64,000 nucleotides of DNA. It comes from Pyrinomonadaceae bacterium (GTDB lineage Bacteria > Acidobacteriota > Blastocatellia > Pyrinomonadales > Pyrinomonadaceae). The translations under genes were made by a program, and so were the position numbers. The stretch lies in NCBI GenBank assembly GCA_051002415.1, contig JBPCMI010000140.1, forward strand, positions 363 through 64,362. Reading direction: 5' to 3'. Under the pieces are notes generated by a model. That model saw only the letters and a program-made list of their open reading frames with translations, did no database searches and was not told where the DNA came from. Below, in pieces: positions 2,619 through 43,091 of this stretch (within the stretch, counting starts at the first letter, position 1; each line of letters starts with the position of its first letter).

Positions 2619-2679
2619 AACTGACTACATCGGCCAAAGGCAGCCTCTCACCTAACCAGCCGTCCGAAGACAAAATTTT

Positions 2680-25357: not shown

Positions 25358-25408
25358 ACTCTTGCCCTTCCCCCTTTTCCGTCTGCGCTTTTATACTCGC
25401 CGCGCACA

Positions 25409-26698: not shown

Positions 26699-27221
26699 GG
26701 AACTGGGAGGTAGTGTTGCTGCCGCTTCAGGGCAATCGCCTGGTGTTGTTTATTCTCCGGATTTCGCCCGAACTGACCATCTGCCAATGGTGGCGCCACA
26801 AGCGGTGCTGTGGGCGCCGCACATGATTTTCTTTTCCACCCTACGTCCTTCCCAATACACGGAACGTTTCTTTCAGCAGCTTTATTACTCGGATGTGAGC
26901 GCCGAAGAGCTTGAGCGTGACTACTTGAATCAGAAATTTGCGAGAGAGGCGATCTTCGGTTGGGAGCGCGTGAATCCAAACCTGACAGCGGATTTCAAAC
27001 CGATCACTTCCGCTGAACTTGCCGACGAAGTAAAAAGTTATGGAGCTTACGTCGCGGGCTTCGATCGCTCAAAAGCGAGTCAACCTGCCCTGACCTATTT
27101 GGTGATCAAAACGGATGTTCCAGCCGATCTTACGAAAATTGACCGTTGGTACATTCGCGACAGTGGTGAGCCAATCGGTCGCTACTTGCTTTATCGATTG
27201 ACTCTGCGGGAGCACCAGTAA
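26205..27221 (+). CDS. C-terminal fragment of the same frameshifted GT-C/PMT-like gene
   Basis: From AVHLDSVQMLVYTRRP... onward (LLPFLLFNQQVITG, HYEQYV, RLRELGG, QQLYYS, IFGWERVN, DRWY) this frame aligns with the 27251 paralogue. Confidence 0.55.
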   Translation: MRLWFLTASCSRNAVHLDSVQMLVYTRRPDLWRPIEGLALLIVLALIVACKQGRLSWRDPRTLVTAAFALLPFLLFNQQVITGRSLQSMHYEQYVASYTTLIAAALTIILLWRGESKRQLSWRFVLIAACLTYGWGLGETLISTRRFAQANVRRDEARPVELRLRELGGSVAAASGQSPGVVYSPDFARTDHLPMVAPQAVLWAPHMIFFSTLRPSQYTERFFQQLYYSDVSAEELERDYLNQKFAREAIFGWERVNPNLTADFKPITSAELADEVKSYGAYVAGFDRSKASQPALTYLVIKTDVPADLTKIDRWYIRDSGEPIGRYLLYRLTLREHQ

Positions 27222-29310: not shown

Positions 29311-32300
29311 TTAAGGCAGCGCTTCCACGTTCACGAAGAAGCGGAACGTGCCACCCTGCTGTACCCCAAGCAAGAATCTCAGATCGATTGAAGCACCCGC
29401 GCCGAGCGGTGTTCCGAGCGTTACGGTGTCCATCGACAATGAGGAGTTCAGTCCACCCCCGATAATTTGATTAGGTGGTTCTTCCAGCGTGCTGCCTCTA
29501 AGCGTTAGTGCGCCGGTGCCGCACGGGTTGTTACCTGACGCGACTGGCACGTCGCTCGACGTGATCGCGCGTAGGTCAGCTGTTCCCGGCGGCGCAACTG
29601 CGGTTGTGATATCTACGATGCGGAACCGCAAGCGCGTAATGCTGCCGCCTGTATGGTTCGTGAACTTGCGCCGGATGTCGAGAGTTCCCAGTGAACCATT
29701 GAATACCGGAGTTAGGTCGCGAATCCGATTCGGACTAGCGCTGCTCTGAACACATGGGAAAACCAACGACGCTTTAATTGTTGCGTTGCGTTGAATAGGA
29801 CTTGAGAGGTTCTCCGGTCCCGGTGCTCCGAGGTGAGCGCCGGCACCGGCATCAGTAGCCTGGGTGTCGACGAACACAAAGTCCGCGGGGTTCACGTTAG
29901 TGTCCTTAGGTAGTCCTGATGACAGGTTGCGTACCCAGCTATGTTGCGAACTGATCGCGGGATTGAGCGCCGGATAGCCGGTGCCCTCTTTGTAAAGCGT
30001 GTTGGCTTCACTAGCCGAGCCTACAGCGTCAAGTCGATTAGCCAGTACAAAGTTAGAGGCAAGCGAAGTGTTGAATAACGCAATGCCGGCGTTATCCGGG
30101 ATGTCGTTCGTGTAGCTGATGTCGCCACTTGCAGACGTTCCATTGCCGGCTGGATAACCTGCCAGCGAATAGCCGAGCGAGTTGACGCCCAGGTAATGCC
30201 CGCGGGCGGGAATGACGGTACCGTTCGGAATAGTGAAGCGGGCGACGCCGTCGGAAGCTACAACCGACCAGCCGCTGGTACCGTCAGTCGTCGACACTAC
30301 GATTGCTGCGTTAGTGTTGTTGTAAATCTCAACAAACTCATCGGTTGCAGCTTGCGAAATAGTTCCGTTCGGCTCGGGTGAAGTACCTACAGGTCCAGGG
30401 CCACGTAACCGGAACTCGCTTATCAAAACAGACCCAAGGGGCTGAGCGCCGAGTGAAAAATAGGCAACGGGCATGTCATGATCCGAATTTCGCTCCGGGC
30501 GCGCGGCGTTAGAAACGAAGGCTGCCGCCGGGAATTCCGGAAAATCGGCGTTGTTGCGCGCGATCGCGATGCGCGTCTTGCGCCCGTTGGCTACCGTGTT
30601 GACGAGCACGTGATCGAGCGCCTGAGGCGTACCCTCGAAGATGAAACTGTAACGCTCGTCGGCCGGCAGGTCGTCAATCAAGTTAATGAAGTTCGGGTTC
30701 ACAAGATCGGGACTCTGATCAACGACGATCTGATCGTCGGGCGTCGGGTTGCCCTTGATAACAGAGAGGGGATCGGTGTAGCCGTCGTTGAATTGATAAG
30801 CGTTGTAGTCGCCGACGGAGATCACACTGGTCCCGGGGTTACCAGACTGCAAATCCTGCAGCAAGTCGGCTAGAAATTCGGCCTGTGCCGTGCGTTTGGC
30901 GCGGACGCGCGGACCCTCACCGGTAACCAACTCAATGTCGATGAACGAGCGTAGGTGGTTGACGACAACGATGACCGGCAAATTAACGCCAAGAGGCTGA
31001 ACGCGCGCGCGGAGTACGAGCGGCGGACGGTCGTTAAGATATGCGGGTTGCCCGTTGGTTGGGTCAATATAGGTATTGCAGGTAGCTGCGTTACCGAGGC
31101 ATCCGGCGAGTTCGATCTGCGTGACGCTATCGACTTGAACACGCGCGGTGTTGACGAGATAGCCAACGTCTTGATCGGCGTCTCCAGTCGTGCTGTCGGC
31201 TTCGACGAGGAAGGCTTGGTAAGAAACACCCGGCGCGATCGCGTTGACCTCGGCGGCGAGGGCTTGCAGACCGGTAAGTTCGAAGATTTCGGCATGCCCG
31301 ATGATGTCGGGCAGTTTCATCACGTCGCGGATGGCGAGCGCGGCTTTCTGACGTTGCGTTGCGTTGTTGTTAAAGTTTTCGATATTGAAACCGGCCACGG
31401 TAAATTCCGTCGACGTAGGGGTCGGCACCGGGACGGCGCTCATATTAGCCGAAGCGATTAAGCTGGTTTCGGGAATGAGCCGATACCGACCAAAAGCAAA
31501 ATCGAGCGGCCCTGCAATGCTCGAGAACGTCACGTTCGACGTGTAAGCATTGATCGCCGAGCCCGCTCGCCCGTTTGTATCCACGGACAAGCGTTCGGGG
31601 TTTTCGTCCCAGCGGGGAATGCAACAGTCAGGCGTGCCCGAAGTCGGATCTGGTGGCACCGGTTGCGAGATTTCAATGCCTGGCTCACGGAGCGGGCGCG
31701 GCACACTGCTGAGTACTGTATCAACGTCGAAAAACTCGTCATTCGGAGCTACCGTATTGAGCGAAGCGGAACTCATCCGCATGCCTTCATACTTTTCGAG
31801 TTGCGGCTGCGTGGGTGGCGCAGTTGGATCAAGGATGGTCGCAGTTAGCACGATGGCATCCGGTAGCCCGTTTCCCGTAGAGTTGACTATAACACTCGAA
31901 ACGGGACTGATCTCCGTCAACCCGTTAAACTCGACGGCAGTACCCGTCACGGTCACGTTGTCGCCGACAGCGACCGTCGGGACGGAAGTGGTGAAAACGA
32001 AGATACCTTCGGACGTGTTCGGGTCGGCGTCGTTAGTGGCCGTTGGCTCTTGCAAGAAGAAGCCGCTGGCCGCGCCGCCGTTGTTAGTGCTGGTCCTGAG
32101 CAACGTGACGATGCCCGTGGTCGTTACAGCCTGACCGGCGAGAGGCGACGTCGCGCCGCTACCCTGTATCTGGTTAATTTTGACGGGCGTGCTATTGATT
32201 ACCGTGAAGTCGAAGACGTAATCCAGCGCCATGTTGTTGGGCGTCCCGTCTTGATCCGCGACCTGGGCCGCCACGACTGTGACCGTGCAGATTTCGCCTT

Positions 32301-33312
32301 GCGTGAAGTCAACTGTCGGATCGAGGGTGTAGGTAGTCGTACCGCCGCTCAGACTGAACGCATGAGTTGAGCTCGCGGAGCAGCTAATGGTGAACGAACT
32401 ACCCGTTGCAGTGACAGGCTCGCTGAAAGTCACGCTAATGTTCGTGTTAACGGCGACGTTGAGCGCGTTGTCCGTCGGAACCGTGCTGGACACGGTTGGG
32501 GCGATGTCAACGGGCGGCCCGCCAGAAAAAGTCTGGCCGGTATTAGGCAAGTTCTGCGTGTGGGCAATCGAGGTGGCGTTCCAGGTGAAGTCGCCGTAGT
32601 TGTCGCCCGTGCCCTGTAACTGGAGCGATGTTCCGGCGGCATTAGTACCATCCTGGAAAACGCCGATGCTAGTGCAAGTCTGCCCGTTGGCGGGGCCATC
32701 CGTCGCTGCGAACGTGCCCTCGTAGCAGAGGAACTGGACGAGCGTGCCGTTATTGACGAGTGCGATGCCGTCCGGCGCACCATTTTGGATACCGTTCGAG
32801 GCGTAGGAAATTGAGACTGTGCCATAGCCACCCTGCTGGGAGGGTATGGGGGTGGGCAGCGAATCTGTATCGTATGCGAGGCCATTGCTCCCGTTGTAGA
32901 GCACAATTGTCCAGCCCGTCAGGTTCGTCCCCGCCGGTCCTGCAACCTCGACGAATTCGCCGGCGTCAGTACCCGTAATGTCGTACAAAATCTCGTTGAT
33001 GAAGACGGTAGAAAGGGTTCCTGCCACATTCGCTGTAATGTTCTTGCGCTTGACCAAACGCTGCGCGACCGCCACCGTGCCCGGAAGCGCGGGCTGAAGA
33101 AGAATAAACGCAGCCGTGATTAGTGCAACAAGTTGATTGTGCAGGGAAGCGCGATGTCCTCGGCCAAAGAGAGATGTAAACACAGGGTTGGTTCCTTTCG
33201 AGATGTTTGAATAGATCTTGCGGGCAGGCAGGAGAGAAACTTGCCCTTCGTTTCGTAATCGACAGAAGATTTCAGTTAAGCCCGAAGGGTAAAACGATCC
33301 TGACACCTCCAA
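29311..33312 (-). CDS. ExeM/NucH-type extracellular nuclease (P4) with an extra C-terminal LTD and the shared C-terminal module
   Basis: N-terminal LTD (VFINEILYD...GEFVEV...LTGWTIVLYNGSNG). Ig-like segment. EEP nuclease motifs (FNIENFNN, VVVNHLRS, GDYNAYQF, LDHVLVN, SDHDMPVAYF). Second LTD VLISEFRLRG...DEFVEIYN, then ...FRFFVNVEALP. The exact start is uncertain. Confidence 0.8.
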   Translation of the reverse strand: MEVSGSFYPSGLTEIFCRLRNEGQVSLLPARKIYSNISKGTNPVFTSLFGRGHRASLHNQLVALITAAFILLQPALPGTVAVAQRLVKRKNITANVAGTLSTVFINEILYDITGTDAGEFVEVAGPAGTNLTGWTIVLYNGSNGLAYDTDSLPTPIPSQQGGYGTVSISYASNGIQNGAPDGIALVNNGTLVQFLCYEGTFAATDGPANGQTCTSIGVFQDGTNAAGTSLQLQGTGDNYGDFTWNATSIAHTQNLPNTGQTFSGGPPVDIAPTVSSTVPTDNALNVAVNTNISVTFSEPVTATGSSFTISCSASSTHAFSLSGGTTTYTLDPTVDFTQGEICTVTVVAAQVADQDGTPNNMALDYVFDFTVINSTPVKINQIQGSGATSPLAGQAVTTTGIVTLLRTSTNNGGAASGFFLQEPTATNDADPNTSEGIFVFTTSVPTVAVGDNVTVTGTAVEFNGLTEISPVSSVIVNSTGNGLPDAIVLTATILDPTAPPTQPQLEKYEGMRMSSASLNTVAPNDEFFDVDTVLSSVPRPLREPGIEISQPVPPDPTSGTPDCCIPRWDENPERLSVDTNGRAGSAINAYTSNVTFSSIAGPLDFAFGRYRLIPETSLIASANMSAVPVPTPTSTEFTVAGFNIENFNNNATQRQKAALAIRDVMKLPDIIGHAEIFELTGLQALAAEVNAIAPGVSYQAFLVEADSTTGDADQDVGYLVNTARVQVDSVTQIELAGCLGNAATCNTYIDPTNGQPAYLNDRPPLVLRARVQPLGVNLPVIVVVNHLRSFIDIELVTGEGPRVRAKRTAQAEFLADLLQDLQSGNPGTSVISVGDYNAYQFNDGYTDPLSVIKGNPTPDDQIVVDQSPDLVNPNFINLIDDLPADERYSFIFEGTPQALDHVLVNTVANGRKTRIAIARNNADFPEFPAAAFVSNAARPERNSDHDMPVAYFSLGAQPLGSVLISEFRLRGPGPVGTSPEPNGTISQAATDEFVEIYNNTNAAIVVSTTDGTSGWSVVASDGVARFTIPNGTVIPARGHYLGVNSLGYSLAGYPAGNGTSASGDISYTNDIPDNAGIALFNTSLASNFVLANRLDAVGSASEANTLYKEGTGYPALNPAISSQHSWVRNLSSGLPKDTNVNPADFVFVDTQATDAGAGAHLGAPGPENLSSPIQRNATIKASLVFPCVQSSASPNRIRDLTPVFNGSLGTLDIRRKFTNHTGGSITRLRFRIVDITTAVAPPGTADLRAITSSDVPVASGNNPCGTGALTLRGSTLEEPPNQIIGGGLNSSLSMDTVTLGTPLGAGASIDLRFLLGVQQGGTFRFFVNVEALP

Positions 33313-33477
33313 ACCAAGATCTCTGGGAAGTTTGGTAAGCGCCGACGGTCAGCTTCGCCTTCTTATACCACACCGTATCTGGGGTGAATAGCTTTTGCAG
33401 TGAATTCGTGCGGTACGACTTAAGGCACTAAAGCCTTTTCTTTTCCAACCGCTCTCGACATGCACAGACGAATTCAC

Positions 33478-33756
33478 TTAAGAGTTTGCAGTCAACAAAC
33501 GATGCGCAGCGAGCGAATTCACCAGGCGTTCGACAGATGCTGTTGCGTGTTCCGCTGTCACGTCGTAGTGGTCCGTGATCTCGCGCGCAATATCGGCTGT
33601 GGTCTGACCGCGTTCTAGACCGCGCCAAACCAGCATCGCTGTCTCGTTCAGCGTGTAGTAACGCTTGGTATTAAGATCGACGAGCACGGCTTCACGGCCG
33701 TCGAACTCGGTATAAACAACGTGGCTGTGTGGCTGCGGTGTGGCGGAGGCGTTCAA
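33478..33756 (-). CDS. PqqD-family protein (RiPP recognition element-type)
   Basis: FDGREAVLVDLNTKRYYTLNETAMLVWRGLERGQTTADIAREITDHYDV...ERLVNSLAAHRLL is a typical PqqD winged-helix pattern. 21 nt downstream of the radical SAM gene. Start codon uncertain (TTG 33756). Confidence 0.8.
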   Translation of the reverse strand: MNASATPQPHSHVVYTEFDGREAVLVDLNTKRYYTLNETAMLVWRGLERGQTTADIAREITDHYDVTAEHATASVERLVNSLAAHRLLTANS

Positions 33757-33777
33757 GTGATCTCTTTCTAATTTGAT

Positions 33778-34872
33778 TCAGTCGCTGGTAGTGGCGGGCG
33801 CGACAATTACCGGCAGCGAGCGTCCGTTCACCCCTTGTGTGTTAACGCCCTCACTGCGCCAGGGGATTTTCCCAAAACTTTGCAAACAGAACAGACAAGG
33901 TGACCCCGTATAAAGGTCCGGTGTCTCGCCGCGTGCTGCGATGTCGGCTAAAGCTTGCCGGCGTCGTTCGAGTTGCTGCTGCGCCAGGGTTTTCAACCGC
34001 GTGTAGCCATCCGCAAAGCTCTCGCGATTCAGATCTGCCACCACATCCGGCTCCCCACCGGCGTTCCGATAACCTGCCAGATTGCAGCAAAGCGTTAAAC
34101 GACCGCGCCAATCGACATTACAACTGGTGGTTTTAAGCGGCGAACAGGGAACATCCGAATGGATGTCGTAGTAACCCGCGGCGATGCCGATCGGCATCTT
34201 CAAAATCTTTGCGAGTCCCACTACTTCCTGTTCCGCATGACGCTGTTCTTCGAGCGACAATGCCGACTCCTGCTCAGCTTCCGCCGATGTTGGCAATAAG
34301 TGCGAAAAATGAAGAGCAGCGGCGCCGAGCCGCGCGGCCAGTAAAGCGATCGACTCCAGCTCGGTCATCGTATCGCGGCGTATACCGACTTTGAACACAA
34401 ACGGAATGCTTTGCACATGACAGCGAGTTACCGCGCGGATCACGCGATCGAAAGATCCGGCGCCACGCCAGAAGTCGTGCGATTCGCGCGTTGCTCCGTC
34501 GATACTGAAAGCGACGAGACGAACTGCTTGCTTGTGCTCCATGATCGCCGGGTAAACGCGATCGAAGTGCCAACCATTTGTAACAAAGCTGCATTGCATG
34601 CCTTCACTTGCCACTGCTGCAATCATGTCGTTGAAGCGAGGATGGAGCGTTACTTCGCCGCCGGTGAAGGTAACGTAGTCAATCTGGTAAGCGTCGCGCG
34701 CTTCGCGAACGATCCGTCCGAGCAGCTCTGCGGGAAAGTAGTTAGCTTTGGTGTGATAGAGAGCGTCCTCATCGCGCATGCAATAGCTGCAATGGAGATT
34801 GCAGATATTCGTCAGCTCGACAGTTAAGCGAACTGGATCCTGGCGCTGGGGAACTTCGGTCGTCATGGTCAC
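33778..34872 (-). CDS. Radical SAM enzyme with C-terminal SPASM-type Cys-rich domain
   Basis: CNLHCSYC (CxxxCxxC) near the N-terminus. FTGGEVTLHP SAM-binding type motif. C-terminal Cys cluster CSPLKTTSCNVDWRGRLTLCCN...GSPCLFC. Confidence 0.85.
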   Translation of the reverse strand: MTMTTEVPQRQDPVRLTVELTNICNLHCSYCMRDEDALYHTKANYFPAELLGRIVREARDAYQIDYVTFTGGEVTLHPRFNDMIAAVASEGMQCSFVTNGWHFDRVYPAIMEHKQAVRLVAFSIDGATRESHDFWRGAGSFDRVIRAVTRCHVQSIPFVFKVGIRRDTMTELESIALLAARLGAAALHFSHLLPTSAEAEQESALSLEEQRHAEQEVVGLAKILKMPIGIAAGYYDIHSDVPCSPLKTTSCNVDWRGRLTLCCNLAGYRNAGGEPDVVADLNRESFADGYTRLKTLAQQQLERRRQALADIAARGETPDLYTGSPCLFCLQSFGKIPWRSEGVNTQGVNGRSLPVIVAPATTSD

Positions 34873-34881
34873 GAAACCTTT

Positions 34882-35943
34882 TTACTCTGTCATGTAGGGC
34901 GCGAGCAAGTTAGCGGCTCGCTCAGGCTGAAGCAACAGGTCACGACCAGCTGCCAGTTCGTAAGCACGGCATTGATTTGCCAGCCGGGCCAGGACTCGCA
35001 AGTAGCTGGGCGCCGTATACGTGTCGTAAGTGGCCCAGGGACAGTGTCGCACGAGCTGCTCCATTGCGGCGCGAGCTCCGATCTCGTTGATCCTCGTCTC
35101 ATCCGACAAGACCACTCGCGGGAAGAAGAGCGCGCGCGGTTGGCAACTGGCCGCTCGGCTCTCAGGAAAAACTGTTTCCGGTTCCAGGCGGCGCTTGGAG
35201 GGATCGGATGCCACGGGAGGACCCAGGGCGGCGCTCAACTTCATGCTACTGCTACCAACCACCGAAGTGTCAGCCACCGCAAACAAGCGGCGCAGCCCTT
35301 CCGCTTCGAGCGAAGTAGGAGTTTCACGCAACACCACCATGTCATCCGACAAGTAGCGCCAGCCTGCTTCCGTGAGACGCAACGTCAACGTCGTCTTGCC
35401 GCTTCCTGAAGCGCCAACAAAAAGGGCGCCCGTTTGCGAAATCGGCTCGAGGGCGCCGGCGGCATGCACGTCGAAAACTCCGGCGCGACGCAATGCGGCT
35501 TGCAGCCCATAGGAAAACGCGTTGACCAGCGCGACCGGATGTCGCGCGTGTTCGCTTACCCCAAACCAGACTTCAACTAATCGATCATCGGGTACCGAGA
35601 TGTGAATCAGCGATTCATCTACAGCCAAAAAATACTGGCTGCCATCCGTGAAGCACTCGCCGCGATTGATCGCGAACGATTGCAATCCAGACGGGATGAT
35701 CGGAAGCGACGCGCGTCTTACTGTCAGCGTGATTGAGGGCTGGTCAACGGGAGCAACCGTGTGAACCAGGTGAAAACCCTTCAGGAAACTGGCGACCCAG
35801 TGCGCTTCCCAATCACCGAGGGTGTGGACGCGAAGGAGGCGGTCGGCAATATTGTAGTGACTAATCAGGCCAGAAGTGGTGTTAGCTTGAAACTGCGACT
35901 CGAGCACTTCGTCGGGTACGGACCGAATGCGAGGAACCTGCAA
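34882..35943 (-). CDS. HPr-kinase-like (HprK-related) putative peptide kinase
   Basis: Walker A FVGASGSGKTTLTL followed by YLSDDMVVL, as in the HprK C-terminal domain. ~350 aa. TTG start 3 nt after the stop of precursor A, in the same frame. Confidence 0.7.
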   Translation of the reverse strand: MQVPRIRSVPDEVLESQFQANTTSGLISHYNIADRLLRVHTLGDWEAHWVASFLKGFHLVHTVAPVDQPSITLTVRRASLPIIPSGLQSFAINRGECFTDGSQYFLAVDESLIHISVPDDRLVEVWFGVSEHARHPVALVNAFSYGLQAALRRAGVFDVHAAGALEPISQTGALFVGASGSGKTTLTLRLTEAGWRYLSDDMVVLRETPTSLEAEGLRRLFAVADTSVVGSSSMKLSAALGPPVASDPSKRRLEPETVFPESRAASCQPRALFFPRVVLSDETRINEIGARAAMEQLVRHCPWATYDTYTAPSYLRVLARLANQCRAYELAAGRDLLLQPERAANLLAPYMTE

Positions 35944-35946
35944 TTG

Positions 35947-36129
35947 TTAGGTTGTAGCACTTTCGATGGTCGGCGCCTGGAAGAAGGTGGTTGCTTCCAG
36001 AACATCGGCGGGCACCGAAACGGGCGGCTCGACAAACGGCTTCTTGCTGGTTGGCTCAGTGGCAGCTTCAGTTAGACGGTCTTGGTCGTTGAGCTGCTCG
36101 TGGCCCGGAACAATTGGTTGTTTACTCAA
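35947..36129 (-). CDS. Putative RiPP precursor peptide A (60 aa, TTG start)
   Basis: GGGAGG 9 nt upstream of TTG. Sequence SKQPIVPGHEQLNDQDRLTEAATEPTSKKPFVEPPVSVPADVLEATTFFQAPTIESATT. Paralogous to 36244-36414. The shared 13-codon block differs only by synonymous changes. Confidence 0.65.
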   Translation of the reverse strand: MSKQPIVPGHEQLNDQDRLTEAATEPTSKKPFVEPPVSVPADVLEATTFFQAPTIESATT

Positions 36130-36172
36130 AGCTGCAGCCTCCCTGAAATCATTAATTGCGTCTTAGCTTCGC

Positions 36173-36211
36173 TGCCGGCACAAGTCAGAGATCATATGGC
36201 TAGTGCCGGCA
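36173..36211 (-). promoter_or_regulatory. Intercistronic stem-loop between the two precursor genes
   Basis: tgccggcac (36173-36181) and gtgccggca (36203-36211): perfect 9-bp stem, 21-nt loop, no U-tract. Possible mRNA processing/stability element. Confidence 0.4.
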
Positions 36212-36243
36212 ATTAAGCAGACACACACACGCAAACGTGAACG

Positions 36244-36414
36244 CTAGACAGTGGTGGTATCGACAGTAGGAGCTTGAAAGAAGGTTGTCGCCTCGAGCAC
36301 ATCTTCAGGAGTTGAAACAGTCGGCTCTACGAAAGGCAATTTTGAATCCGTTTGCGTCAGCTCGTTTTGATCCGTGACTTGCTCGCTTACAACATGACTG
36401 TTTGGCTTATTCAA
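36244..36414 (-). CDS. Putative RiPP precursor peptide B (56 aa, TTG start; below the ORF-track size cutoff)
   Basis: My own translation: (M)NKPNSHVVSEQVTDQNELTQTDSKLPFVEPTVSTPEDVLEATTFFQAPTVDTTTV, stop TAG at 36244-36246. GGAGAC SD upstream of TTG 36414. 12 nt after the stop of the 36427 gene. Confidence 0.6.
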   Translation of the reverse strand: MNKPNSHVVSEQVTDQNELTQTDSKLPFVEPTVSTPEDVLEATTFFQAPTVDTTTV

Positions 36415-36426
36415 GGTTCGGTCTCC

Positions 36427-37326
36427 TCACATTTTGATTGTCTGACTGATTGGCTGCGCTAGTACTAGACGCAATGGTTTGGTCTCGTACGTCTGCAGGT
36501 CGGTACGTTGGTACAAACGAATGTTCGGCGAAAGCGTCCTCACCACTTGTTCCATGGTGGCGTTGTTCAAGTCAACGTTAACAATCTCCGAAGAGTCATA
36601 TTTCATCTCGAAAGGAATGTCAACCTTGCTGGCAATTTCGTAAAGTACAGCCGTCAAGGGCTGTTTTCGTGCCCTGACAGTGAACTGATTGCGATCGATT
36701 TTGACGCTCAATGAAATCTCTTGCTCGTCCTTGGCCGCTTGCTCGGTGCCTTCTTCGGTGTTTCCGGAAATGAGAATCGCTTCCGAATCTCCGCGCACCA
36801 CAGCCGACTCTGAAGGCGGTGATTCATTCAGAGCATAAAGATAGAGAGCGACAATCTTTGGCATCGTGCTGCCATCGCCGCTGATTTCGTAATCAGCGTA
36901 AGGCTGCGGCGCAATCATCCGCACCGCGCCTTCCAGAGGCATGCCTTCAAATTCAATCGTGACGCGTGCTTTTTGCATCACCGGGCTCAAGAGCACAGGA
37001 ATATCAAACTCCTTGCTGAGCTTGGCGGCGATCTCCGCTACTAAAGCCGCATTGGCTTTCAAGTCCACGGCGCGCACAGGTCCGCTGGCAACCTTCAAAG
37101 TGAACTTGCCCTTGGCCTCTTTGGATTTTGCTTTATCGGCTGAGGCAGGCACTTGCTTATCAACTGAATCCGGTGCTGCTGCTTTCTCTTTTTGCGCAGC
37201 CGGCTTGGTCTCTTCGCCGGCGGTTGCGGGCACTGTGTTTTGAGTGCGGCTTTGCGCCAGCGCCGCGGCGGGCAGGATCAGTAACAGGACGAGTGCGAAC
37301 AAGCGACTGGAAAACATCTGCGCCAT
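36427..37326 (-). CDS. Secreted protein with two internal repeats (STN/secretin-N0-like by impression); first gene of the precursor operon
   Basis: ATG 37326 with a GAGG SD. Signal peptide MAQMFSSRLFALVLLLILPAAALAQ, Lys/Ala-rich linker. Two similar ~80-aa units (...DLKANAALVAEIAAKLSKEFDIPVLL...; ...RKQPLTAVLYEIASKVDIPFEM...). The 54 codons upstream in the ORF track are probably not translated. Confidence 0.55.
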   Translation of the reverse strand: MAQMFSSRLFALVLLLILPAAALAQSRTQNTVPATAGEETKPAAQKEKAAAPDSVDKQVPASADKAKSKEAKGKFTLKVASGPVRAVDLKANAALVAEIAAKLSKEFDIPVLLSPVMQKARVTIEFEGMPLEGAVRMIAPQPYADYEISGDGSTMPKIVALYLYALNESPPSESAVVRGDSEAILISGNTEEGTEQAAKDEQEISLSVKIDRNQFTVRARKQPLTAVLYEIASKVDIPFEMKYDSSEIVNVDLNNATMEQVVRTLSPNIRLYQRTDLQTYETKPLRLVLAQPISQTIKM

Positions 37327-37582
37327 TCTAACTACCTCTTGAAAAATGAAGCCTGAATTAACTTTCAGCAGACCTTCCAGTCTCGCCGGTGTCAACTTTG
37401 TATCGTGGGGACTAAATAGAGTTTCCTTAGCGTCGAATCGTTGCCCCATCCCGAGACATGAAACCGCCGTTAACGGCGGCCGGGGCACATCTGGAACATT
37501 CCCCGTCGCACGTTAGTCTGACGTGAAGGAATTTCCGTATGGCCCGGACAGTAGCACATTGTCTCGCGCACGGCAACGACTT

Positions 37583-37702
37583 CAAAAAAAAGCGTAGTGC
37601 CCTAAATTGTAGAGAAAACTTTTAGTTTGCGCTGAATAAATGGCATTCAAGGCGCACGCAAACTAACAGTTTGCGTTACAAAGACCTACACCGGGGCACT
37701 AC
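37583..37702 (-). terminator. Complex terminator-like structure downstream of the nucleotidyltransferase gene
   Basis: On the minus-strand RNA, GUAGUGCCC (37702-37694) pairs with GGGCACUAC (37602-37594), followed by U8 (37590-37583). Encloses a perfect hairpin ACGCAAACU-GUU-AGUUUGCGU (37676-37656) and a third copy of the word (37632-37624). Confidence 0.45.
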
Positions 37703-37720
37703 CGAAAAAAGTCTTTGGTG

Positions 37721-38926
37721 CTAATGGAAATGGCTGGGCCCACCCGTAACCACCAACCGCACGGGACGCAGAAGGTAATAAATAAAGGTCAGCGCTGGAG
37801 GCAATTTAAGCCGCACAAGATCCTCCTCGTTCGGCGTAAATGTGAATCTGAGATAGTTCAACTTGTCCCGTAACCTGCGGCGCGCTCGTAACTGAAACCT
37901 GAAATAGCCCGTCATGCCGGTTCTTGTCAGCTCGGGAGTGAATAGATCGCGAATAACATCCTGGGCCAGGGCCGCGACTGAGACATCAACATTTAATGCG
38001 TTCTCCACATGTTTCGGAAGGGGCACTTCCAGTAAATCTGCGGCCAAACGCAAACCCAGAAAAAGCATGCGTTCGCTCCCCGTGGATCGCGCGCGACTAA
38101 TTAGTTCCTGCCAGTTCAGGTCCGTCTCAGTTGCGATCAGACCAGCGATGTCGCAAACCCACGCAAGCCGCTCCCAAAGATGTTTCGATCCATGAATGCA
38201 CAACGCCAGAAGTAGATCTTCCGTCGCCGGAACTTTGATAGCAACTGTTTCCAACTTTGCGTCCAGCAATCGCGACCAAAAATCATCAGTCTCAAACGGA
38301 CGTGCAAAAGCCGGGGCGCTAACAGTCCAGTGAAGCTCGACGATCATGCGGTTTCGATCGCGGGTAAAAGGCAGGTTGCATTGAGTTCGTAAGAGCACGG
38401 CTTGCTGGCCCTCAGTCAGCGGCGGTAATTGCGCATAGCCTTCGGACAAAAGTAAGTCGCGCGCGCGCAGCACGTCGCCCGGGTGCACAAGAATATCGAG
38501 ATCGCTGAACTGACGGAGTGCGACGTTTCCGTAAATCTGCAAAGCGAGGGCAGGCCCTTTATACGGCGCTGCCCGAACATCGTTGTCGACAAACAGCGTG
38601 AGCAGTTTCTGCAGCTCGTGGGTGAGCAGAATGTTCAGCGCGGAAACGCGTTGAAAAGCGACGCGCAAGTGTTGACGCTGCTGACTGGGAACAGCCTCAG
38701 GACAAACTGCGTTCAAGTGCGAATGCAGCAACGGTTGCAAGCCATGACGATCAGCCAACCGCAGCACCAGATCCCAGTCAAGTGGTCCCGACACGAGATC
38801 CTGAATTCGTTTTTTTTGGGCCTCATCGAGTGAAGCACGTGCACAGGTAAGCAGGAGCGCGGACTCAGGTCTCTCCGCAGCGAAACCGTTTGCCGCAACA
38901 TTCGAAACTTTGAGGGACGCAGACAT
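37721..38926 (-). CDS. Uncharacterised nucleotidyltransferase family protein (NTP_transf_5-like)
   Basis: N-terminal LLLTCARASLDE...DWDLVLRLADRHGLQPLLHSHL pattern and ~400-aa size are typical of this family, which often accompanies lasso/PqqD-type RiPP loci. Confidence 0.6.
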   Translation of the reverse strand: MSASLKVSNVAANGFAAERPESALLLTCARASLDEAQKKRIQDLVSGPLDWDLVLRLADRHGLQPLLHSHLNAVCPEAVPSQQRQHLRVAFQRVSALNILLTHELQKLLTLFVDNDVRAAPYKGPALALQIYGNVALRQFSDLDILVHPGDVLRARDLLLSEGYAQLPPLTEGQQAVLLRTQCNLPFTRDRNRMIVELHWTVSAPAFARPFETDDFWSRLLDAKLETVAIKVPATEDLLLALCIHGSKHLWERLAWVCDIAGLIATETDLNWQELISRARSTGSERMLFLGLRLAADLLEVPLPKHVENALNVDVSVAALAQDVIRDLFTPELTRTGMTGYFRFQLRARRRLRDKLNYLRFTFTPNEEDLVRLKLPPALTFIYYLLRPVRLVVTGGPSHFH

Positions 38927-38984
38927 GAAATAAAGGAGGGCAGGAAGATAACGCGCCAGAAGACGCGGCTGGCGAACTTCGGCC

Positions 38985-40784
38985 TTACTCGTTCACTTTT
39001 AAGACGGCAAGAAATGCTTCCTGAGGAATCTCCACGCGCCCGACTTTCTTCATCCGCTTCTTGCCTTCTTTTTGCTTCTCCAACAGTTTGCGCTTACGCG
39101 TGATGTCGCCGCCGTAGCATTTCGCAATCACGTTCTTACCCATCGCCTTCACCGTTTCTCGGGCAATTACTTTGTTTCCGATCGCCGCTTGAATCGGAAC
39201 TTCAAACATCTGCCGTGGTATTAGCTGCTTCATTTTCTCCGCCAGCGCGCGTCCTTTCGATTGCGAGGTGCTGCGATGAAGCACAAGCGAGAGCGCATCA
39301 ACGGGCTCATCGGCAACCAGGATATCGAGTTTTACTAAATCGCTTTCCCAGTAACCGGCAAGATTGTAGTCAAGCGAAGCATAGCCGCGCGAAACTGATT
39401 TTAAGCGATCATAAAAGTCCAAAACAATTTCGTTCAACGGCAATTCATAGGTCAACATCACGCGGTTCGCCGCGATGTATTCGAAACCCTTTTGCACGCC
39501 TCGCTTTTCTTCCAACAGCGGCAGGATTCCGCCCAGGTATTCATCGGAAGTAAGTATTGTCGCGCGAATTATTGGTTCTTCAATTTTCACAATCCGACCC
39601 GGGTCGGGCATCTTGGCGGGCGAGTCGATCTCGAGGACTTTGCCGTCAGTTGTGTGCACCACGTAACGAACGCCGGGGGCAGTCGTAATTAGATCGAGAT
39701 TAAACTCGCGCTCTAGCCGTTCCTGGACCACTTCCATGTGGAGCAAGCCAAGAAAGCCGCAGCGAAAGCCAAAGCCGAGGGCCGTCGATGATTCGGGTTC
39801 ATAGAAGAAGGACGCATCATTCAGCCGCAGCTTGTCCAGAGCATCACGCAGCTCTTCATACTGATTCGTGTCGACCGGATAAAGACCGGCGAAGACCATG
39901 GGCTTGATCTCTTCGAAACCAGGAAACGGTTCTGAAGTGGGACGCGCGCTTTCAGTAATGGTGTCGCCAATTTGCACGTCTGCTACTTCTTTAATCGACG
40001 CCGTCAGGAATCCGACTTCGCCCACTCCAAGCGAGTCGATAGGCGTGGGCCGCGGACGATTGACTCCCAACGTCTCAACCTGGTAATCGCGCCCGGTATT
40101 GAAGAAACGGATCTTCATGCCCGTTCGAATTGTGCCGTCGATCACGCGAAACAAAACAATCACGCCGCGATACGAGTCGTACCACGAGTCGAAGATCAAT
40201 GCTTTGAGCGGACCCTCAGGATCGCCTTTCGGGTACGGCACGTCGCGCACGACAGCTTCCAGCACTTCATGCACACCCGCGCCGGTCTTCGCGCTGGTAA
40301 AGACGGCATTGTGCGTCTCGAGACCGATGAGATGTTCGATTTGTTCGATTGCCCGATCGGGTTCGGCGCCCGGTAAGTCGATTTTATTAATGACAGGGAT
40401 GAGTTCCAGATTGTTCTCGATGGCGAGGTAGGTGTTAGCAAGGGTTTGGGCTTCGACTCCCTGGGAAGCGTCCACGATCAGCAAGGCGCCCTCGCAGGCT
40501 GAGAGCGAGCGCGAGACTTCATACGAAAAATCCACGTGGCCCGGAGTGTCGATGAGATTTAGAACATAAGCTTTGCCGTCTTCCGCCGTGTAATCGAGCC
40601 GCACGGCATGCGACTTAATCGTGATACCGCGCTCCCTTTCGAGATCCATGTTGTCGAGCACTTGCTCAGACATATCGCGCCCGGTCACGGCGCCCGTCAA
40701 CTCGAGCAGCCGATCCGCCAAAGTAGACTTGCCATGATCGATATGCGCGATGATGGAAAAATTACGAATCCGTTCGACGTTCAT
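38985..40784 (-). CDS. lepA: Translation elongation factor 4 (LepA)
   Basis: [30 protein letters not shown] GTPase motifs, and the LepA-specific C-terminus ([22 protein letters not shown]). Start set to ATG 40784 (MNVERIRNF). Confidence 0.95.
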
Positions 40785-41626: not shown

Positions 41627-43009
41627 TTATAAATCAAATTCACTGATCAAGCGGTGCAGATACGAGCGACTGATGCCAAGCAGTTTTGCGGCAGCCACTT
41701 TGTTTCCACCAGATGTCTCTAGCGCTTTCAAAATCAAGCGCCTTTTAAGTGCCGCCACTCCGCCTTCCAGCGTCGCTTCATCTGCAAGATTGGTCCCCGG
41801 CAGGACTCTCAGCATTTTTTCCGGCAGGAATTCCAAATCAATGGTGGGCCCATTAGTCAGGACCACTAGGCGTTCCATCACGTTTTCCAGTTCCCGTACG
41901 TTACCCGGCCATTCATATTCCTGCAGCGCTTCGAGCAGCAGTGGATCGAGTACCGGCGCCGGTCGCAAATATTTCTCCGCCGCTTTCTCGGCGAAATGAA
42001 TCGCCAGCACCGGAATATCTTCTTTGCGCGCACGCAAGGTCGGTAAGACTAACGGCACCACATTCAAACGATAAAATAAGTCACGACGAAATCTGCCTTC
42101 CGCGACTTCCTGTTCCAAATCACAATTGCTCGCAGCTATCAGGCGAATATCAACGTGCAATGTCTTCGTGCCGCCCACACGTTCGAAGGATCGCTCCTGC
42201 AACACTCGCAATAGCTTTACCTGGACCGTCGGGGTCAGGTCCGCTATTTCATCAAGAAATAATGTGCCCCCGTCGGCAAGCTCAAAACGACCTTTGCGAG
42301 TTTGCGTAGCAGTTGTGAATGACCCTTTTTCGTGTCCAAACAATTCCGATTCGATCAGGGTTTCTGGTAAAGCCGCACAGCTGACTCCGACAAAAGGACC
42401 GCCGGCTCGCGGACTTTCTTCATGAATGGCGCGCGCCAACAGTTCTTTTCCGGTTCCATTTTCGCCGATGACTAGGACGGTCGCACTTGTTGCCGCTACC
42501 GTGCGCGCGTGCTTGACGATCCGTTCGAGAGATTGGCTTGCGCCAATCAGATGACTGAATCCACGCGAGCCCAACAACTCGTCACGGAGCCTGACGTTCT
42601 CAACTTCAAGGCGTCGCATTCGTGCCGCTTGATTCACTATATGCAAAACTTCGTCGGCGTCGAGCGGCTTTTCAAAAAAACCATAAGCCCCGTGCTTCAC
42701 TGCTTCCAGCGCCGCTCGCTTGGAGTTGCTTCCGGTAATCACTACAGCCTGAACCGCCGGGCGCATGCTGCGCGCCGCTTGCACCACAGTCAGTCCTTCT
42801 GAGATGTCATCAAGATGCGGCGGCAAATGTAAGTCGCTGATGACGACGTCCACTTTCTCATGCTGCAACAGCTCGACTGCTTCGTTACGCGAGCCGGCTT
42901 CGATGACGCGATAGTCAGAGTTCAAAGCCCAGTAAAGGCCGCGACGGACCGACTCGTCGTCGTCAACCAGCAGTACTGTTCCCTTCAAATTTGACTGTGA
43001 TCCGGGCAT
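41627..43009 (-). CDS. Sigma-54-dependent response regulator (NtrC family)
   Basis: REC domain (LLVDDDESV...DVVISDLHLP). AAA+ activator motifs GENGTGKE, ESELFGHEKGSFTTA, RRDLFYRLNV. C-terminal Fis-type HTH AAAKLLGISRSYLHRLI. Confidence 0.9.
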   Translation of the reverse strand: MPGSQSNLKGTVLLVDDDESVRRGLYWALNSDYRVIEAGSRNEAVELLQHEKVDVVISDLHLPPHLDDISEGLTVVQAARSMRPAVQAVVITGSNSKRAALEAVKHGAYGFFEKPLDADEVLHIVNQAARMRRLEVENVRLRDELLGSRGFSHLIGASQSLERIVKHARTVAATSATVLVIGENGTGKELLARAIHEESPRAGGPFVGVSCAALPETLIESELFGHEKGSFTTATQTRKGRFELADGGTLFLDEIADLTPTVQVKLLRVLQERSFERVGGTKTLHVDIRLIAASNCDLEQEVAEGRFRRDLFYRLNVVPLVLPTLRARKEDIPVLAIHFAEKAAEKYLRPAPVLDPLLLEALQEYEWPGNVRELENVMERLVVLTNGPTIDLEFLPEKMLRVLPGTNLADEATLEGGVAALKRRLILKALETSGGNKVAAAKLLGISRSYLHRLISEFDL

Positions 43010-43091
43010 CAGGAATCCGAGCCAAGGTCTCGCCTGACTAAACTAAAACTTTGGATTGTACGCGAGTGAACGGTCAGCGAACCTGCGACCG

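Follow-up and report, generated by a model that had tools for sequence, protein, structure and literature searches.

The window analysed here, a 64,000-nucleotide stretch of a Pyrinomonadaceae contig, carries on its minus strand two small genes, A and B, for candidate precursor peptides, together with genes for a secreted protein, an HPr-kinase-like peptide kinase, a radical SAM enzyme, a PqqD-family recognition element and a nucleotidyltransferase-family protein; a gene for a lasso B2-type cysteine protease lies on the opposite strand (Table 1). The sequence-only reading of this stretch had covered the two peptides and the kinase, and did not include the radical SAM enzyme, PqqD, the NTP transferase or the secreted upstream partner.

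Table 1. Features of the precursor locus and its surroundings, in window coordinates
Feature	Position	Strand	Details
Lasso B2-type cysteine protease (Transglut_core3), probable leader peptidase	9831..10334	plus	NF033537 lasso_biosyn_B2 53 bits, above the cut-off of 33; PF13471 1.3e-14
Secreted lamin-tail-domain (LTD) / ExeM-NucH-type nuclease	29311..33312	minus	follows PqqD directly; a conserved neighbour
PqqD-family RiPP recognition element, lasso B1-like	33478..33756	minus	PF05402 7e-18; best NCBIfam lasso_PqqD_Strm, 60 bits against a cut-off of 70
Radical SAM enzyme, Cys-rich C-terminal SPASM/twitch-type domain	33778..34872	minus	PF04055 1e-23
HPr-kinase-like peptide kinase	34882..35943	minus	353-aa ORF, true start uncertain; Hpr_kinase_C 4.5e-5; HprK_rel_A 50 bits against a cut-off of 200
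Precursor peptide A	35947..36129	minus	60 aa, TTG start; leader ...SKKPFVEPPVSVPADVLEATT, predicted core FFQAPTIESATT
GGGAGG Shine-Dalgarno of precursor A	36138..36143	minus	8 nt 5' of TTG
GC-rich stem-loop between B and A	36172..36212	minus	UUGCCGGCAC ... GUGCCGGCAG; MFE -42.8 kcal/mol for the 117-nt spacer, z = -2.2
Precursor peptide B	36244..36414	minus	56 aa, TTG start; leader ...SKLPFVEPTVSTPEDVLEATT, predicted core FFQAPTVDTTTV
GAGGAG Shine-Dalgarno of precursor B	36423..36428	minus	8 nt 5' of TTG
Secreted protein	36427..37326	minus	299 aa from ATG 37326 (ORF reaches 37488); signal peptide and two alpha/beta domains; weak FecR_C match
NTP_transf_5 nucleotidyltransferase-family protein	37721..38926	minus	PF14907 3.6e-63; in 54 related loci
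Sigma-54-type response regulator	41627..43009	minus	conserved upstream neighbour
Sensor histidine kinase	43092..44813	minus	conserved upstream neighbour

Precursors A and B share the block DVLEATTFFQAPT, and a codon-by-codon comparison bears out the pattern first reported for it: 13 identical residues, 10 third-position differences and no replacements, to which the PFVEP segment adds 3 further synonymous differences. Nei-Gojobori counting over the block gives a pS of ~1.0 and a pN of 0, and 10 random substitutions in its 39 nt left the peptide unchanged in 0 of 2,000,000 trials. Because synonymous-only substitutions fit the minus-strand frames, we rejected the overlapping plus-strand ORFs at 35761..36075 and 35966..36166 as real genes. 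The described gene starts were likewise confirmed: the TTG is the sole ATG, GTG or TTG start in each ORF, both TTGs follow a GGAGG-like Shine-Dalgarno sequence, and ORF B does fall short of the 60-aa cut-off of the ORF list. The Shine-Dalgarno sequence of B overlaps the TGA stop codon (36427..36429) of the upstream secreted-protein gene, and B starts 12 nt past this stop; the same aaaATGTGAGGAG arrangement, with stop codon and Shine-Dalgarno sequence overlapping ahead of the precursor, is found again in many loci. At the other end of the pair, the kinase ORF has its first TTG at 35941..35943, in the frame of A and a single CAA past the TAA stop codon of the latter (35947..35949), as had been noted. 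Precursor A is 100% identical to a database protein (P0001) annotated as 'hypothetical protein [Pyrinomonadaceae bacterium]', and the predicted core of B also occurs at loci L004, L006 and L014.

The small ORFs belong to a wider family, which we assembled as 40 peptides from a protein collection, 73 loci from GTDB species genomes and 80 metagenome contigs. There are ~150 related loci, nearly all from the Pyrinomonadaceae/Blastocatellia, and the substitution pattern among them respects the reading frame, as expected if the ORFs are conserved genes. Family-wide values of 0.75 for pS and 0.12 for pN agree with the A/B block in placing selection on the peptide, and all four codons of the invariant Ser, Pro and Thr residues are in use across the family. 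Purifying selection on the precursor peptide is thus strong. The TTG start, with its Shine-Dalgarno sequence, is conserved too, being retained in 77 of 83 gene contexts. The N-terminal, leader half of the peptide is divergent, again as first described, and the block ahead of the core conserved, and each locus has between one and three paralogous precursors with divergent tails.

The leaders have the spacing of lasso peptide leaders, F(-17)xxP(-14)xV(-12)...T(-2), with Thr at -2 in 88/88 genes, Phe at -17 in 84/85, Pro at -14 in 85/85 and Val or Ile at -12 in 85/85. Lasso B1 and B2 proteins need Tyr(-17), Pro(-14), Leu(-12) and Thr(-2) in their substrates (PMC10368454), and the family conforms to this lasso pattern of aromatic(-17)xxP(-14)xL(-12) with Thr(-2). 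The earlier suggestion of a lasso-type cut after Thr-Thr is plausible in view of these conserved positions. The PqqD-family protein has the lasso B1 proteins TfuB1 (5.7e-6) and TbiB1 as its best PDB sequence matches, and we class it as a B1-type recognition element which, judged from the motif spacing and the B1 homology, would bind the leader at F(-17)xxP(-14)xV(-12). The B2 protease retains its CWKRA and GHAWLE motifs across 34 homologues, and a search of PDB sequences with it returned no match. By sequence, then, a lasso-B1-like PqqD and a predicted lasso B2 protease are part of the cluster. The protease would cut after Thr(-2)-Thr/Ala(-1), giving a product of 11-15 residues that starts Phe-Phe-Gln and carries no macrolactam.

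The gene downstream of A had been called kinase-type, and its predicted product indeed has an intact version of the catalytic motif of lasso-precursor kinases, H-GxxGxGK[S/T]-x16-DD (PMC8498205, PMC10368454): H160, G177xSGSGK183 and YLSDD198-201 are at least 90% conserved among 68 homologues. The first ~28 residues are not conserved in the same homologues, so that initiation at the TTG at 35941..35943 is uncertain. A search of the PDB with the kinase gave marginal HPr kinase matches only. In lasso systems HPr-kinase homologues phosphorylate the linear precursor, helped by B1, and nucleotidyltransferases attach a hexose to the resulting phosphate (PMC8498205, PMC10368454). By analogy with PadeK, BsfK and LppK, PqqD may present the peptide to the HPr-kinase-like enzyme, which would phosphorylate the hydroxyl group of a Ser or Thr in the tail, itself short, acidic and rich in these two residues; the NTP_transf_5 protein may then decorate the phosphate, on the model of PsmN.

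The secreted-protein gene immediately precedes the precursor in every one of the 66 loci where it occurs, and the distance from its stop codon to the precursor start is 11-20 nt in 30/63 loci. A Foldseek search of the PDB with the model of the protein yielded nothing significant, with weak domain-level resemblance to anti-sigma FecR/PupR C-terminal domains and secretin N0 domains, and homologue searches returned generic or 'hypothetical' names only. Translation of the precursors would begin at the conserved TTGs behind their strong Shine-Dalgarno sites, with B coupled to the upstream stop codon. All four of the remaining twin-precursor loci keep the stem-loop between B and A; inspection by eye shows the base of its stem altered by wobble or compensating changes. 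An Rfam scan of 33000..39500 gave chance-level matches only. In ~47 loci an LTD-family gene is placed either between those for PqqD and B2 or immediately 5' of the secreted-protein gene, and in ~44 loci the histidine kinase and response regulator are co-oriented upstream and are possible regulators of the cluster. Matches to a sigma-54 promoter pattern were fewer than expected by chance, with none near the cluster, and a scan for sigma-70 promoters and terminators gave nothing over background. We found no signal peptidase family among the scanned window ORFs or the recurrent neighbour families, and no ABC transporter among the recurrent neighbour families or exporter at the window locus; some sublineages have an SdpB-like membrane protein.

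The predicted cores are short, mostly of 11-15 residues (11 in 34 genes, 12 in 23, 13 in 9 and 15 in 19, out of 88). Phe at position 2 is nearly invariant, and the FFQ start, with Gln at position 3, is kept in 75/88 cores although it lies past the predicted cleavage site. Cys, Trp, His, Lys and Arg are absent from all 88, and Tyr occurs in one exception only. An acidic residue had been predicted at core position 8. This is correct for both peptides of the window, but the idea that position 8 is always Asp or Glu fails in the family at large, where it holds for 40/88 genes. An acid is found at +7 to +9 in 47/88 genes, elsewhere at +6, +10 or other sites, and 18/88 cores have no Asp or Glu at all; the ring acceptor that lasso cores place at positions 7-9 is accordingly not a feature of the family. 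Absence of the acid goes together with presence of a sulfotransferase gene, which in the GTDB loci accompanies 13/13 acid-less cores with enough flanking sequence and none of the cores with Asp or Glu. In the independent metagenome contigs the sulfotransferase is present with 5/6 acid-less cores and absent with 11/12 acid-containing ones; FFEVATSGVVN, which seems to break the rule, has no acid at the usual site. This covariation comes mostly from one clade plus L072 and has one counter-example, L154. In the acid-less LFQAPT[IV]QT group, P0039 and P0033 sit on short contigs; a DNA-pattern scan for the group found no match in the metagenome contigs, and the same pattern does match L043, L077 and L078. 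The co-occurrence of acid-less cores with a sulfotransferase fits a need for negative charge rather than for an isopeptide bond. A negative charge near core positions 6-9 appears to be required, supplied by Asp or Glu in most lineages and presumably by sulfation in the acid-less ones.

A and B are probably paralogous precursors of a ribosomally made, post-translationally modified peptide. We further favour, as the better bet, the view that the cluster is a lasso-peptide toolkit for leader recognition, proteolysis and phosphorylation that lacks the ring-forming cyclase and has a radical SAM enzyme in addition, and that its product would be short, linear, anionic and probably phosphorylated, starting FFQ. 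Several observations count against this explanation. The kinase scores far under the cut-offs of every curated HprK-related family, the Ser3 phosphosite of the linear polyphosphorylated peptide (LPP) and Bsf systems is Gln in the Pyrinomonadaceae cores, and the B2 gene of the window is 23 kb from PqqD, with paralogous secreted-protein genes between them. On the other side of the balance, B2 is no more than 150 nt from PqqD in many relatives, among them L050, L055, L056, L061, L063, L068, L070 and L074.

A ring closed on Glu/Asp 8, as the sequence-only reading implied, would call for a macrolactam cyclase, and here that reading finds no support: no Asn-synthetase-type cyclase is present among the scanned ORFs of the 64 kb window or among the recurrent neighbour families of the 73 loci (+/-10 kb flanks). 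A scan of 1.19 Mb of loci for the PP-loop motif SGGxDS gave matches in three long ORFs, in L045, L071 and L074, and the model scoring covered the one in L071. The L071 protein, a 632-aa Asn-synthase homologue encoded beside B2 and next to rmlA, was rejected as a lasso cyclase; it is an XrtA/PEP-CTERM-type (exopolysaccharide-type AsnB) amidotransferase, scoring 700 bits against the XrtA-type model and 273 of the 525 bits needed for the lasso cyclase model. A true lasso peptide, with Phe1 joined through its amine to Glu8/Asp8 by a cyclase encoded elsewhere in the genome, would explain the lasso-type leader, B1 and B2, the kinase, NTP transferase, sulfotransferase and O-methyltransferase accessories known from lasso clusters, and the position of the acid in both window peptides. 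This is nevertheless highly improbable given the missing cyclase, the lack of an ABC exporter, the cores whose acid is displaced or absent, and the sulfotransferase that takes the place of the acid in acid-less lineages. Moreover, an 8-residue ring in a core of 11-12 residues leaves a tail of 3-4 residues, too short to thread.

The radical SAM enzyme raises a different difficulty, since it could form a macrocycle, and the description of the product as linear may for that reason be wrong. Its gene, present in 61 of ~70 loci, is flanked by those for the kinase and PqqD, and the protein has an invariant CX3CX2C motif and six likewise invariant auxiliary Cys residues in its C-terminal part. The AlphaFold model (pLDDT 82) matches DesII, SuiB, BlsE, SkfB, CteB, anSME and PqqE, among them the peptide cross-linkers SuiB, SkfB, CteB and PqqE. 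Whilst the enzyme might on these grounds be the class-defining one, introducing a C-C or ether cross-link, for example on core Phe2, to give a small macrocycle for which phosphorylation and nucleotidyl or glycosyl transfer are mere tailoring, we consider this unlikely. The conservation of FFQ beyond the predicted cut would suit such a role, and the PQQ and mycofactocin pathways likewise have a SPASM enzyme next to a discrete PqqD. However, L071 and L073, on contigs that span the region, have no radical SAM gene yet keep the FF(Q/F) cores, the kinase and PqqD, L073 being a minimal variant with the secreted protein, precursor, kinase and PqqD only, plus a subtilase. To our knowledge none of the characterised thioether, Lys-Trp, Arg-Tyr and Glu-Tyr chemistries is compatible with the residue composition of the cores. 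Nor does the family fit a Phe-x-x cyclophane motif, position +4 being Gly in a large group and +3 Gly in one core. Foldseek and PDB sequence searches gave generic SPASM/twitch neighbours only, which point to no particular chemistry; the enzyme has no specific NCBIfam membership, and its homologues bear generic or 'hypothetical' names only. Because the gene is absent from the two variants, the enzyme is probably a tailoring one that would add a further modification to the peptide. A further proposal concerns biological role and is compatible with our preferred explanation of the chemistry, namely that the product is a lineage-wide signalling peptide or peptide-derived factor rather than an antibiotic-like compound, tied to the secreted STN-like protein, the LTD nucleases and the sensor kinase and sigma-54 regulator, with the variable tails as specificity determinants. 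In 73 species-level genomes, all of one family, the chromosomal surroundings of the locus are conserved, and its distribution is not patchy. The invariable and often translationally coupled secreted-protein gene, the LTD proteins inside or beside the cluster, the upstream two-component genes, the paralogous precursors with their divergent tails and the lack of recognised immunity or exporter genes all point the same way. Synteny within one bacterial family can, however, be kept by shared ancestry alone, and with neither a sigma-54 promoter nor a significant Foldseek match for the secreted protein this role is improbable.

The closest known system is that of the LPPs of Bacillota (Popov et al., Nat Commun 2026, PMC13381572), whose biological role was unknown at the time of description. 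Both families are cyclase-less relatives of phosphorylated lasso peptides, with a discrete recognition element, an HprK-like kinase and an NTP transferase (LppN and NTP_transf_5 being matched by description only), one to three precursors per cluster with variable C-termini, and a lasso-like aromatic-xx-P-x-V leader with a conserved Thr 15 residues past the aromatic. The full LPP leader YxxPxVLxHQxIxFETxxS with its phosphorylated Ser3 is, however, not that of the Pyrinomonadaceae family, and the aromatic-xxPxV...T spacing alone is common to both. Where LPPs are cleaved immediately behind Thr(-1) by a SipW-type signal peptidase, the Pyrinomonadaceae family has the lasso B2 cysteine protease, or in L073 the subtilase; LPPs have an MsbA-like ABC exporter, and none was found here among the recurrent families. 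LPP cores are ~45 residues or more in length and polyphosphorylated on Ser3, in contrast to the short cores with Gln at this position. The radical SAM/SPASM enzyme, the secreted protein with two STN-like domains and the LTD proteins are additional to the LPP gene set. LPPs are described as patchy and restricted to Bacillota, whereas the present family is from Acidobacteriota and syntenic across one bacterial family.

Phosphorylated lasso peptides (paeninodin, pseudomycoidin and the Bsf subfamily; PMC8498205, PMC10368454) share with the family the YxxPxL...T(-2) leader spacing, the split into B1 (PqqD) and B2 (transglutaminase-like), an HPr-kinase homologue with the H...GxxGxGK[S/T]...DD motif, which in the lasso systems acts on the linear precursor, a nucleotidyltransferase, and sulfotransferase and O-methyltransferase as optional accessories. 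The family differs from them in having no macrolactam cyclase and no ABC exporter but a radical SAM enzyme, and in cores with neither a conserved ring acceptor nor a small N-terminal residue. The same combination of HprK-like, PqqD-family and radical SAM/SPASM proteins is found in the SynChlorMet cassette (TIGR04248-04251) and the HPr-rel-A system (TIGR04352/04353), both uncharacterised. Models of these systems are among the best or only matches for the kinase, PqqD and radical SAM enzyme, with scores far under their cut-offs (HprK_rel_A 50/200, ScmD 33.5/100, PqqD_rel_X 19.7/35, ScmE 71/400). Unlike the Pyrinomonadaceae cluster, SynChlorMet includes a pair of radical SAM proteins, and no precursor has been identified for it. 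As far as we know, neither definition includes B2 or NTP_transf_5. A literature search for SynChlorMet by name found no publication, and searches combining lasso, SPASM, leader peptidase, RRE and kinase, or directed at Pyrinomonadaceae RiPPs, found nothing relevant. The gene cluster is a previously undescribed one of soil Acidobacteria.

If our preferred explanation is correct, cyclase-less linear relatives of lasso peptides, first described in 2026, are not confined to Bacillota, and would have arisen independently in a dominant soil phylum by a route in which the lasso B2 protease was kept and a radical SAM enzyme gained. A fuller account, which we regard as quite unlikely to hold in all its parts, is that the cluster is a vertically kept Pyrinomonadaceae trait making an undescribed class of peptide, in which lasso-derived leader, B1, B2 and kinase are recombined with a radical SAM/SPASM enzyme to give a short anionic FFQ-peptide; its partner in cell-cell or envelope signalling would be the translationally coupled STN-like secreted protein, perhaps joined by the LTD nucleases and by the sensor kinase and sigma-54 regulator, and the TTG start would set dosage. 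The TTG start is unusually conserved, and dosage control could be its role. The family offers ~100 distinct natural core sequences, and the division between Asp/Glu lineages and sulfotransferase lineages is a natural experiment that points to the functionally important position. Very few metabolites of Acidobacteria have been characterised, and a pathway made up of one short peptide and five or six enzymes lends itself to heterologous expression.

Codon-by-codon comparison of the twin small genes A and B agrees exactly with the positions, strand and pattern of differences assigned to them by the sequence-only reading. The peptide DVLEATTFFQAPT common to both is encoded with 10 third-position differences and no replacements, and PFVEP contributes three further synonymous differences, likewise as had been noted. 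By the Nei-Gojobori method the DVLEATTFFQAPT block has a pS of ~1.0 and a pN of 0, and the last 32 codons have a pS of 0.86 and a pN of 0.18. When 10 random substitutions were distributed over 39 nt, none of 2,000,000 simulations preserved the peptide. Precursor A has a 100% identical counterpart in a Pyrinomonadaceae MAG, annotated 'hypothetical protein', and 40 homologous peptides are present in the protein collection. Searching one genome per GTDB species with a back-translated pattern located 73 related loci, nearly all in Pyrinomonadaceae or Blastocatellia MAGs, and 80 additional contigs with such loci came from a metagenome scan. The GTDB set comprises 88 precursor genes with 53 distinct cores (the predicted peptide after cleavage past Thr-Thr) and the metagenome set has 54 distinct cores. 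The family consensus, KKPFVEPxVSxPxDVLEAT[T/A]FFQ, leads into a tail that varies. In the conserved block of 21 codons, 85 distinct gene sequences give a mean pS of 0.75 and a mean pN of 0.12, with all four codons in use at its invariant Ser, Pro and Thr sites. The small genes are thus clearly conserved with respect for the reading frame, bearing out the proposal that A and B encode precursors under selection on the peptide.

Decaying precursor copies occur in close relatives (numbered homologous loci L014, about 9676..9990; L001, 9751..9876; and L005, 9692..9871). The L014 spacer contains a degenerate third copy with the translation ...KKLFVAPVVSVTTDVLAVD..., the B copy of L001 is cut off by a stop, and that of L005 lacks one FVEP residue and has changed core residues. 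On the short contig of L043 (273..2547) the gene immediately after a precursor of the LFQAPTVQTAVVP type, which lacks the acid, is one of the lamin-tail domain (LTD) family instead of the kinase gene, an arrangement which suggests that precursor copies can exist outside the standard operon.

Features of the precursor gene cluster in the window
Feature	Position	Strand	Remark
NTP_transf_5	37721..38926	minus	
Secreted protein	36427..37326	minus	299 aa
Precursor B	36244..36414	minus	56 aa
Stem-loop between B and A	36172..36212	minus	GC-rich, 10 bp
Precursor A	35947..36129	minus	60 aa
HPr-kinase-like protein	34882..35943	minus	
Radical SAM enzyme	33778..34872	minus	
PqqD	33478..33756	minus	92 aa
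Large secreted LTD/ExeM-NucH nuclease	29311..33312	minus	past PqqD; LTD paralogue
Secreted LTD paralogue	18160..22974	minus	
Secreted LTD paralogue	11919..15437	minus	
Secreted LTD paralogue	10470..11132	minus	
Transglut_core3 protein (lasso B2)	9831..10334		53 bits, NCBIfam lasso B2 cut-off 33

The genes of the window follow the order NTP_transf_5, secreted protein, B, A, kinase, radical SAM, PqqD and LTD/ExeM-NucH nuclease, of which the stretch from NTP_transf_5 to PqqD is conserved in nearly every locus. Clustering of neighbouring ORFs places the kinase in 68 loci, the secreted protein in 66, the radical SAM enzyme in 61 and NTP_transf_5 in 54. The gene for B2, the probable leader peptidase, lies 23 kb from PqqD in the window, the gap being occupied by paralogous LTD-type genes. 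We nevertheless count B2 as a member of the system because it is near PqqD in most relatives: the two genes are convergent and less than 150 nt apart in L050, L055, L056, L061, L063, L068, L070 and L074, and in most other loci a single LTD-family gene alone separates them.

The four secreted LTD paralogues of the window have a common C-terminal region of ~200 aa ending ...FRF(F/L)(V/L)NVEALP. In about 47 related loci, among them the most divergent ones (L073, L076), genes of this family occupy the interval from PqqD to B2 or a place directly ahead of the secreted-protein gene. A sensor histidine kinase, judged by eye to have a large periplasmic domain, and a sigma-54-type response regulator (41627..44813) lie upstream and co-oriented, as they do in about 44 related loci, including rearranged ones such as L048; a search around the cluster gave no match to the sigma-54 promoter consensus. 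Two overlapping plus-strand ORFs (25355..26698 and 26205..27221) resemble by eye the N- and C-terminal parts of a paralogue of the membrane protein at 27251..29167, and may reflect either a pseudogene split by a frameshift or an error in sequencing.

TTG is the sole candidate start in both A and B, and is preceded at 8 nt by a Shine-Dalgarno sequence (GGGAGG for A, GAGGAG for B). The proposed TTG initiation holds across the family: of 83 distinct upstream contexts, 77 have TTG as the aligned start, 4 have ATG and 2 have GTG, inspection by eye indicating that both GTG picks are mis-selections with a TTG close by, and 80 contexts have a GGAG/GAGG/AGGA/GGGA-like motif ahead of the start. Among the 30 called genes of two related loci, 24 start with ATG and three with TTG, one of the latter being a precursor. 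The TTG start is therefore a conserved feature specific to the family rather than the genomic default. In 30 of 63 loci, B included, 11-20 nt separate the upstream stop codon from the start of the first precursor, and the TGA of the secreted-protein gene (36427..36429) lies inside the Shine-Dalgarno sequence of B (36423..36428; aaaATGTGAGGAG), with many loci alike, suggesting that translation of the two genes is coupled. This overlap may also constrain the conserved C-terminal ...KM of the secreted protein. As claimed, 3 nt separate the stop of A from the first TTG of the following ORF, which is in the same frame. The putative coupling of A to the kinase rests on a start that is uncertain, since the N-terminal ~28 residues of the kinase ORF show no conservation among 68 homologues. 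The stem-loop between B and A is kept in L004, L005, L006 and L014, where the base of the stem shows wobble or compensating changes, and may be a processing, stability or attenuation element.

The leader and its probable processing enzymes are of lasso type. If cleavage past Thr-Thr is taken as the reference, the leader has F(-17), P(-14), V/I(-12) and T(-2), the last in all 88 precursor genes, and this spacing is identical to that of the Tyr(-17), Pro(-14), Leu(-12) and Thr(-2) needed by lasso B1/B2 proteins (PMC10368454). The top curated match of PqqD is a lasso PqqD chaperone model, and among solved structures its top matches are to TfuB1 and TbiB1, both lasso B1 proteins. The B2 family keeps CWKRA and GHAWLE motifs, which we take to contain the catalytic Cys and His. 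Taken together, these features support the predicted cleavage after Thr-Thr. Likewise, assignment of the downstream gene as a putative kinase agrees with its family's conserved H160, G177xSGSGK183 and D200-D201, which match the H-GxxGxGKS-x16-DD motif of lasso-precursor kinases, enzymes that phosphorylate the linear precursor with the assistance of B1. Known lasso accessory enzymes comprise HPr-kinase homologues, nucleotidyltransferases, sulfotransferases and O-methyltransferases (PMC8498205), and all four types are found in the FFQ-peptide family, the O-methyltransferase in at least 33 loci and the sulfotransferase in about 13.

The implied lasso ring closed on residue 8 is unsupported and fails as a family-wide reading. 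Asp or Glu is present at +8 in 40 of the 88 genes, at +7 to +9 in 47 and nowhere in 18, and core lengths are chiefly 11, 12 or 15 residues; such short cores with an inconstant or absent acid argue against a ring. No asparagine-synthetase-type cyclase was found among the scanned window ORFs or the recurrent neighbour families; a cyclase encoded at a distance is an unlikely alternative. A scan of 1.19 Mb of loci for the PP-loop motif SGGxDS gave three long-ORF matches (L071, L045 and L074), of which the one in L071 was profile-scanned. The 632-aa L071 protein scores 273 bits as a lasso cyclase, where 525 are needed; it is an XrtA/PEP-CTERM-type amidotransferase (700 bits) adjoining rmlA.

The acidic residue instead follows a pattern which fits a role in recognition or charge better than an isopeptide bond. 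A Sulfotransfer_3 gene lies between the radical SAM and PqqD genes in all 13 GTDB loci that have cores without Asp or Glu and a contig extending past the radical SAM gene (L034, L036, L037, L040-L042, L044, L047, L049, L052, L054, L058 and L072), although these represent few independent events because one clade and L072 make up most of the acid-less group. Their cores are of the types FFQ[AS]x[ST]SGx[TI]N, FFIATSSNVTN and FFFQATLTTGAI. None of the GTDB loci with an acidic core has Sulfotransfer_3. On independent metagenome contigs 11 acid-containing cores lack the sulfotransferase and five acid-less cores have it (metagenome loci with the gene: L099, L103, L114, L117, L131 and L135). The core FFEVATSGVVN, which has the sulfotransferase, is an apparent exception, its sole acid replacing Gln3 and its usual site being acid-less; FQQPVGSGQTN (L154), acid-less yet without a sulfotransferase, is the one real exception. 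Aligned tails read T-E-S-G or T-D-S-G as against T-S-G or S-S-G. We infer from these sequences that a negative charge at this site probably matters, supplied either genetically or by sulfation.

No ABC exporter is present among the recurrent neighbours of the loci. In L037 (13442..14823) two membrane proteins of about 171 and 294 aa come after PqqD, with equivalents in about 15 GTDB loci; the pair goes with lineages having xSGxT[NT] tails and has no counterpart in the window. At the corresponding place next to B2, L071 has a 655-aa ORF (2159..4126) with a sub-threshold match to SdpB, a family for sporulation-delaying protein export/maturation. In those lineages the pair or the SdpB-like ORF may serve as the exporter or maturation factor that is otherwise missing.

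The radical SAM enzyme has a CX3CX2C motif and six invariant C-terminal Cys residues. Its model (pLDDT 82) resembles DesII, SuiB, BlsE, SkfB, viperin, CteB, anSME and PqqE, with no specific one among these structural neighbours, and every score against curated families is far under the cut-off. The cores are devoid of Cys, Trp, His, Lys and Arg, with Tyr in one exception only, a composition which would rule out cross-links of the characterised thioether, Lys-Trp, Arg-Tyr and Glu-Tyr types; the candidates are then a Phe-based cyclophane, an ether on Thr, epimerisation or some other C-H functionalisation. The contigs of L071 and L073 extend across the region and retain precursor, kinase and PqqD genes but no radical SAM gene; L073 also has a convergent subtilase in place of B2 and no NTP_transf_5 nearby. 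The kinase and PqqD, with the secreted protein, thus form the most persistent core, and the radical SAM step is more likely a tailoring reaction. Public calls of this gene in L001 (11364..12365) and L002 (11366..12364) begin at MRDEDALYHT, which loses the CX3CX2C motif, placing the true start about 30 codons upstream.

The secreted protein consists of a signal peptide, a low-complexity linker and two similar alpha/beta domains (residues 74-164 and 206-289), and its 312 homologues are all unnamed. Pfam gives a sub-threshold FecR_C match and Foldseek no significant one, the closest, non-significant resemblance of the domains being to anti-sigma FecR/PupR C-terminal and secretin N0 domains. Its gene invariably sits directly ahead of the precursor, which is the strongest clue to an action of the peptide in the envelope or outside it.

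The model with the best support is that of a short anionic peptide, made without a cyclase and probably phosphorylated, with the N-terminus FFQ, which B1 and B2 would release after Thr-Thr and the radical SAM enzyme would tailor. Our literature search found no paper describing this Pyrinomonadaceae family. The uncharacterised SynChlorMet and HPr-rel-A cassettes of NCBIfam have the same kinase-like/PqqD/radical SAM combination; the window proteins score far under the cut-offs of both. The closest described system is the linear polyphosphorylated peptides (LPPs) of Bacillota, which have a lasso-like YxxPxV...T leader motif and a polyphosphorylated core Ser3, and are described as linear analogues of phosphorylated lasso peptides restricted to Bacillota (PMC13381572). 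The two systems have in common their general logic and the 15-residue spacing from the aromatic residue to Thr. The Pyrinomonadaceae family differs in keeping the lasso B2 protease, in missing an exporter, in having Gln rather than Ser at core position 3 and far shorter cores, in its additional radical SAM enzyme and secreted partner, and in its conserved chromosomal neighbourhood in Acidobacteriota. We rate the family as a variant belonging with those relatives of phosphorylated lasso peptides that lack a cyclase and were described recently, of interest to specialists in modified peptides and Acidobacteria.
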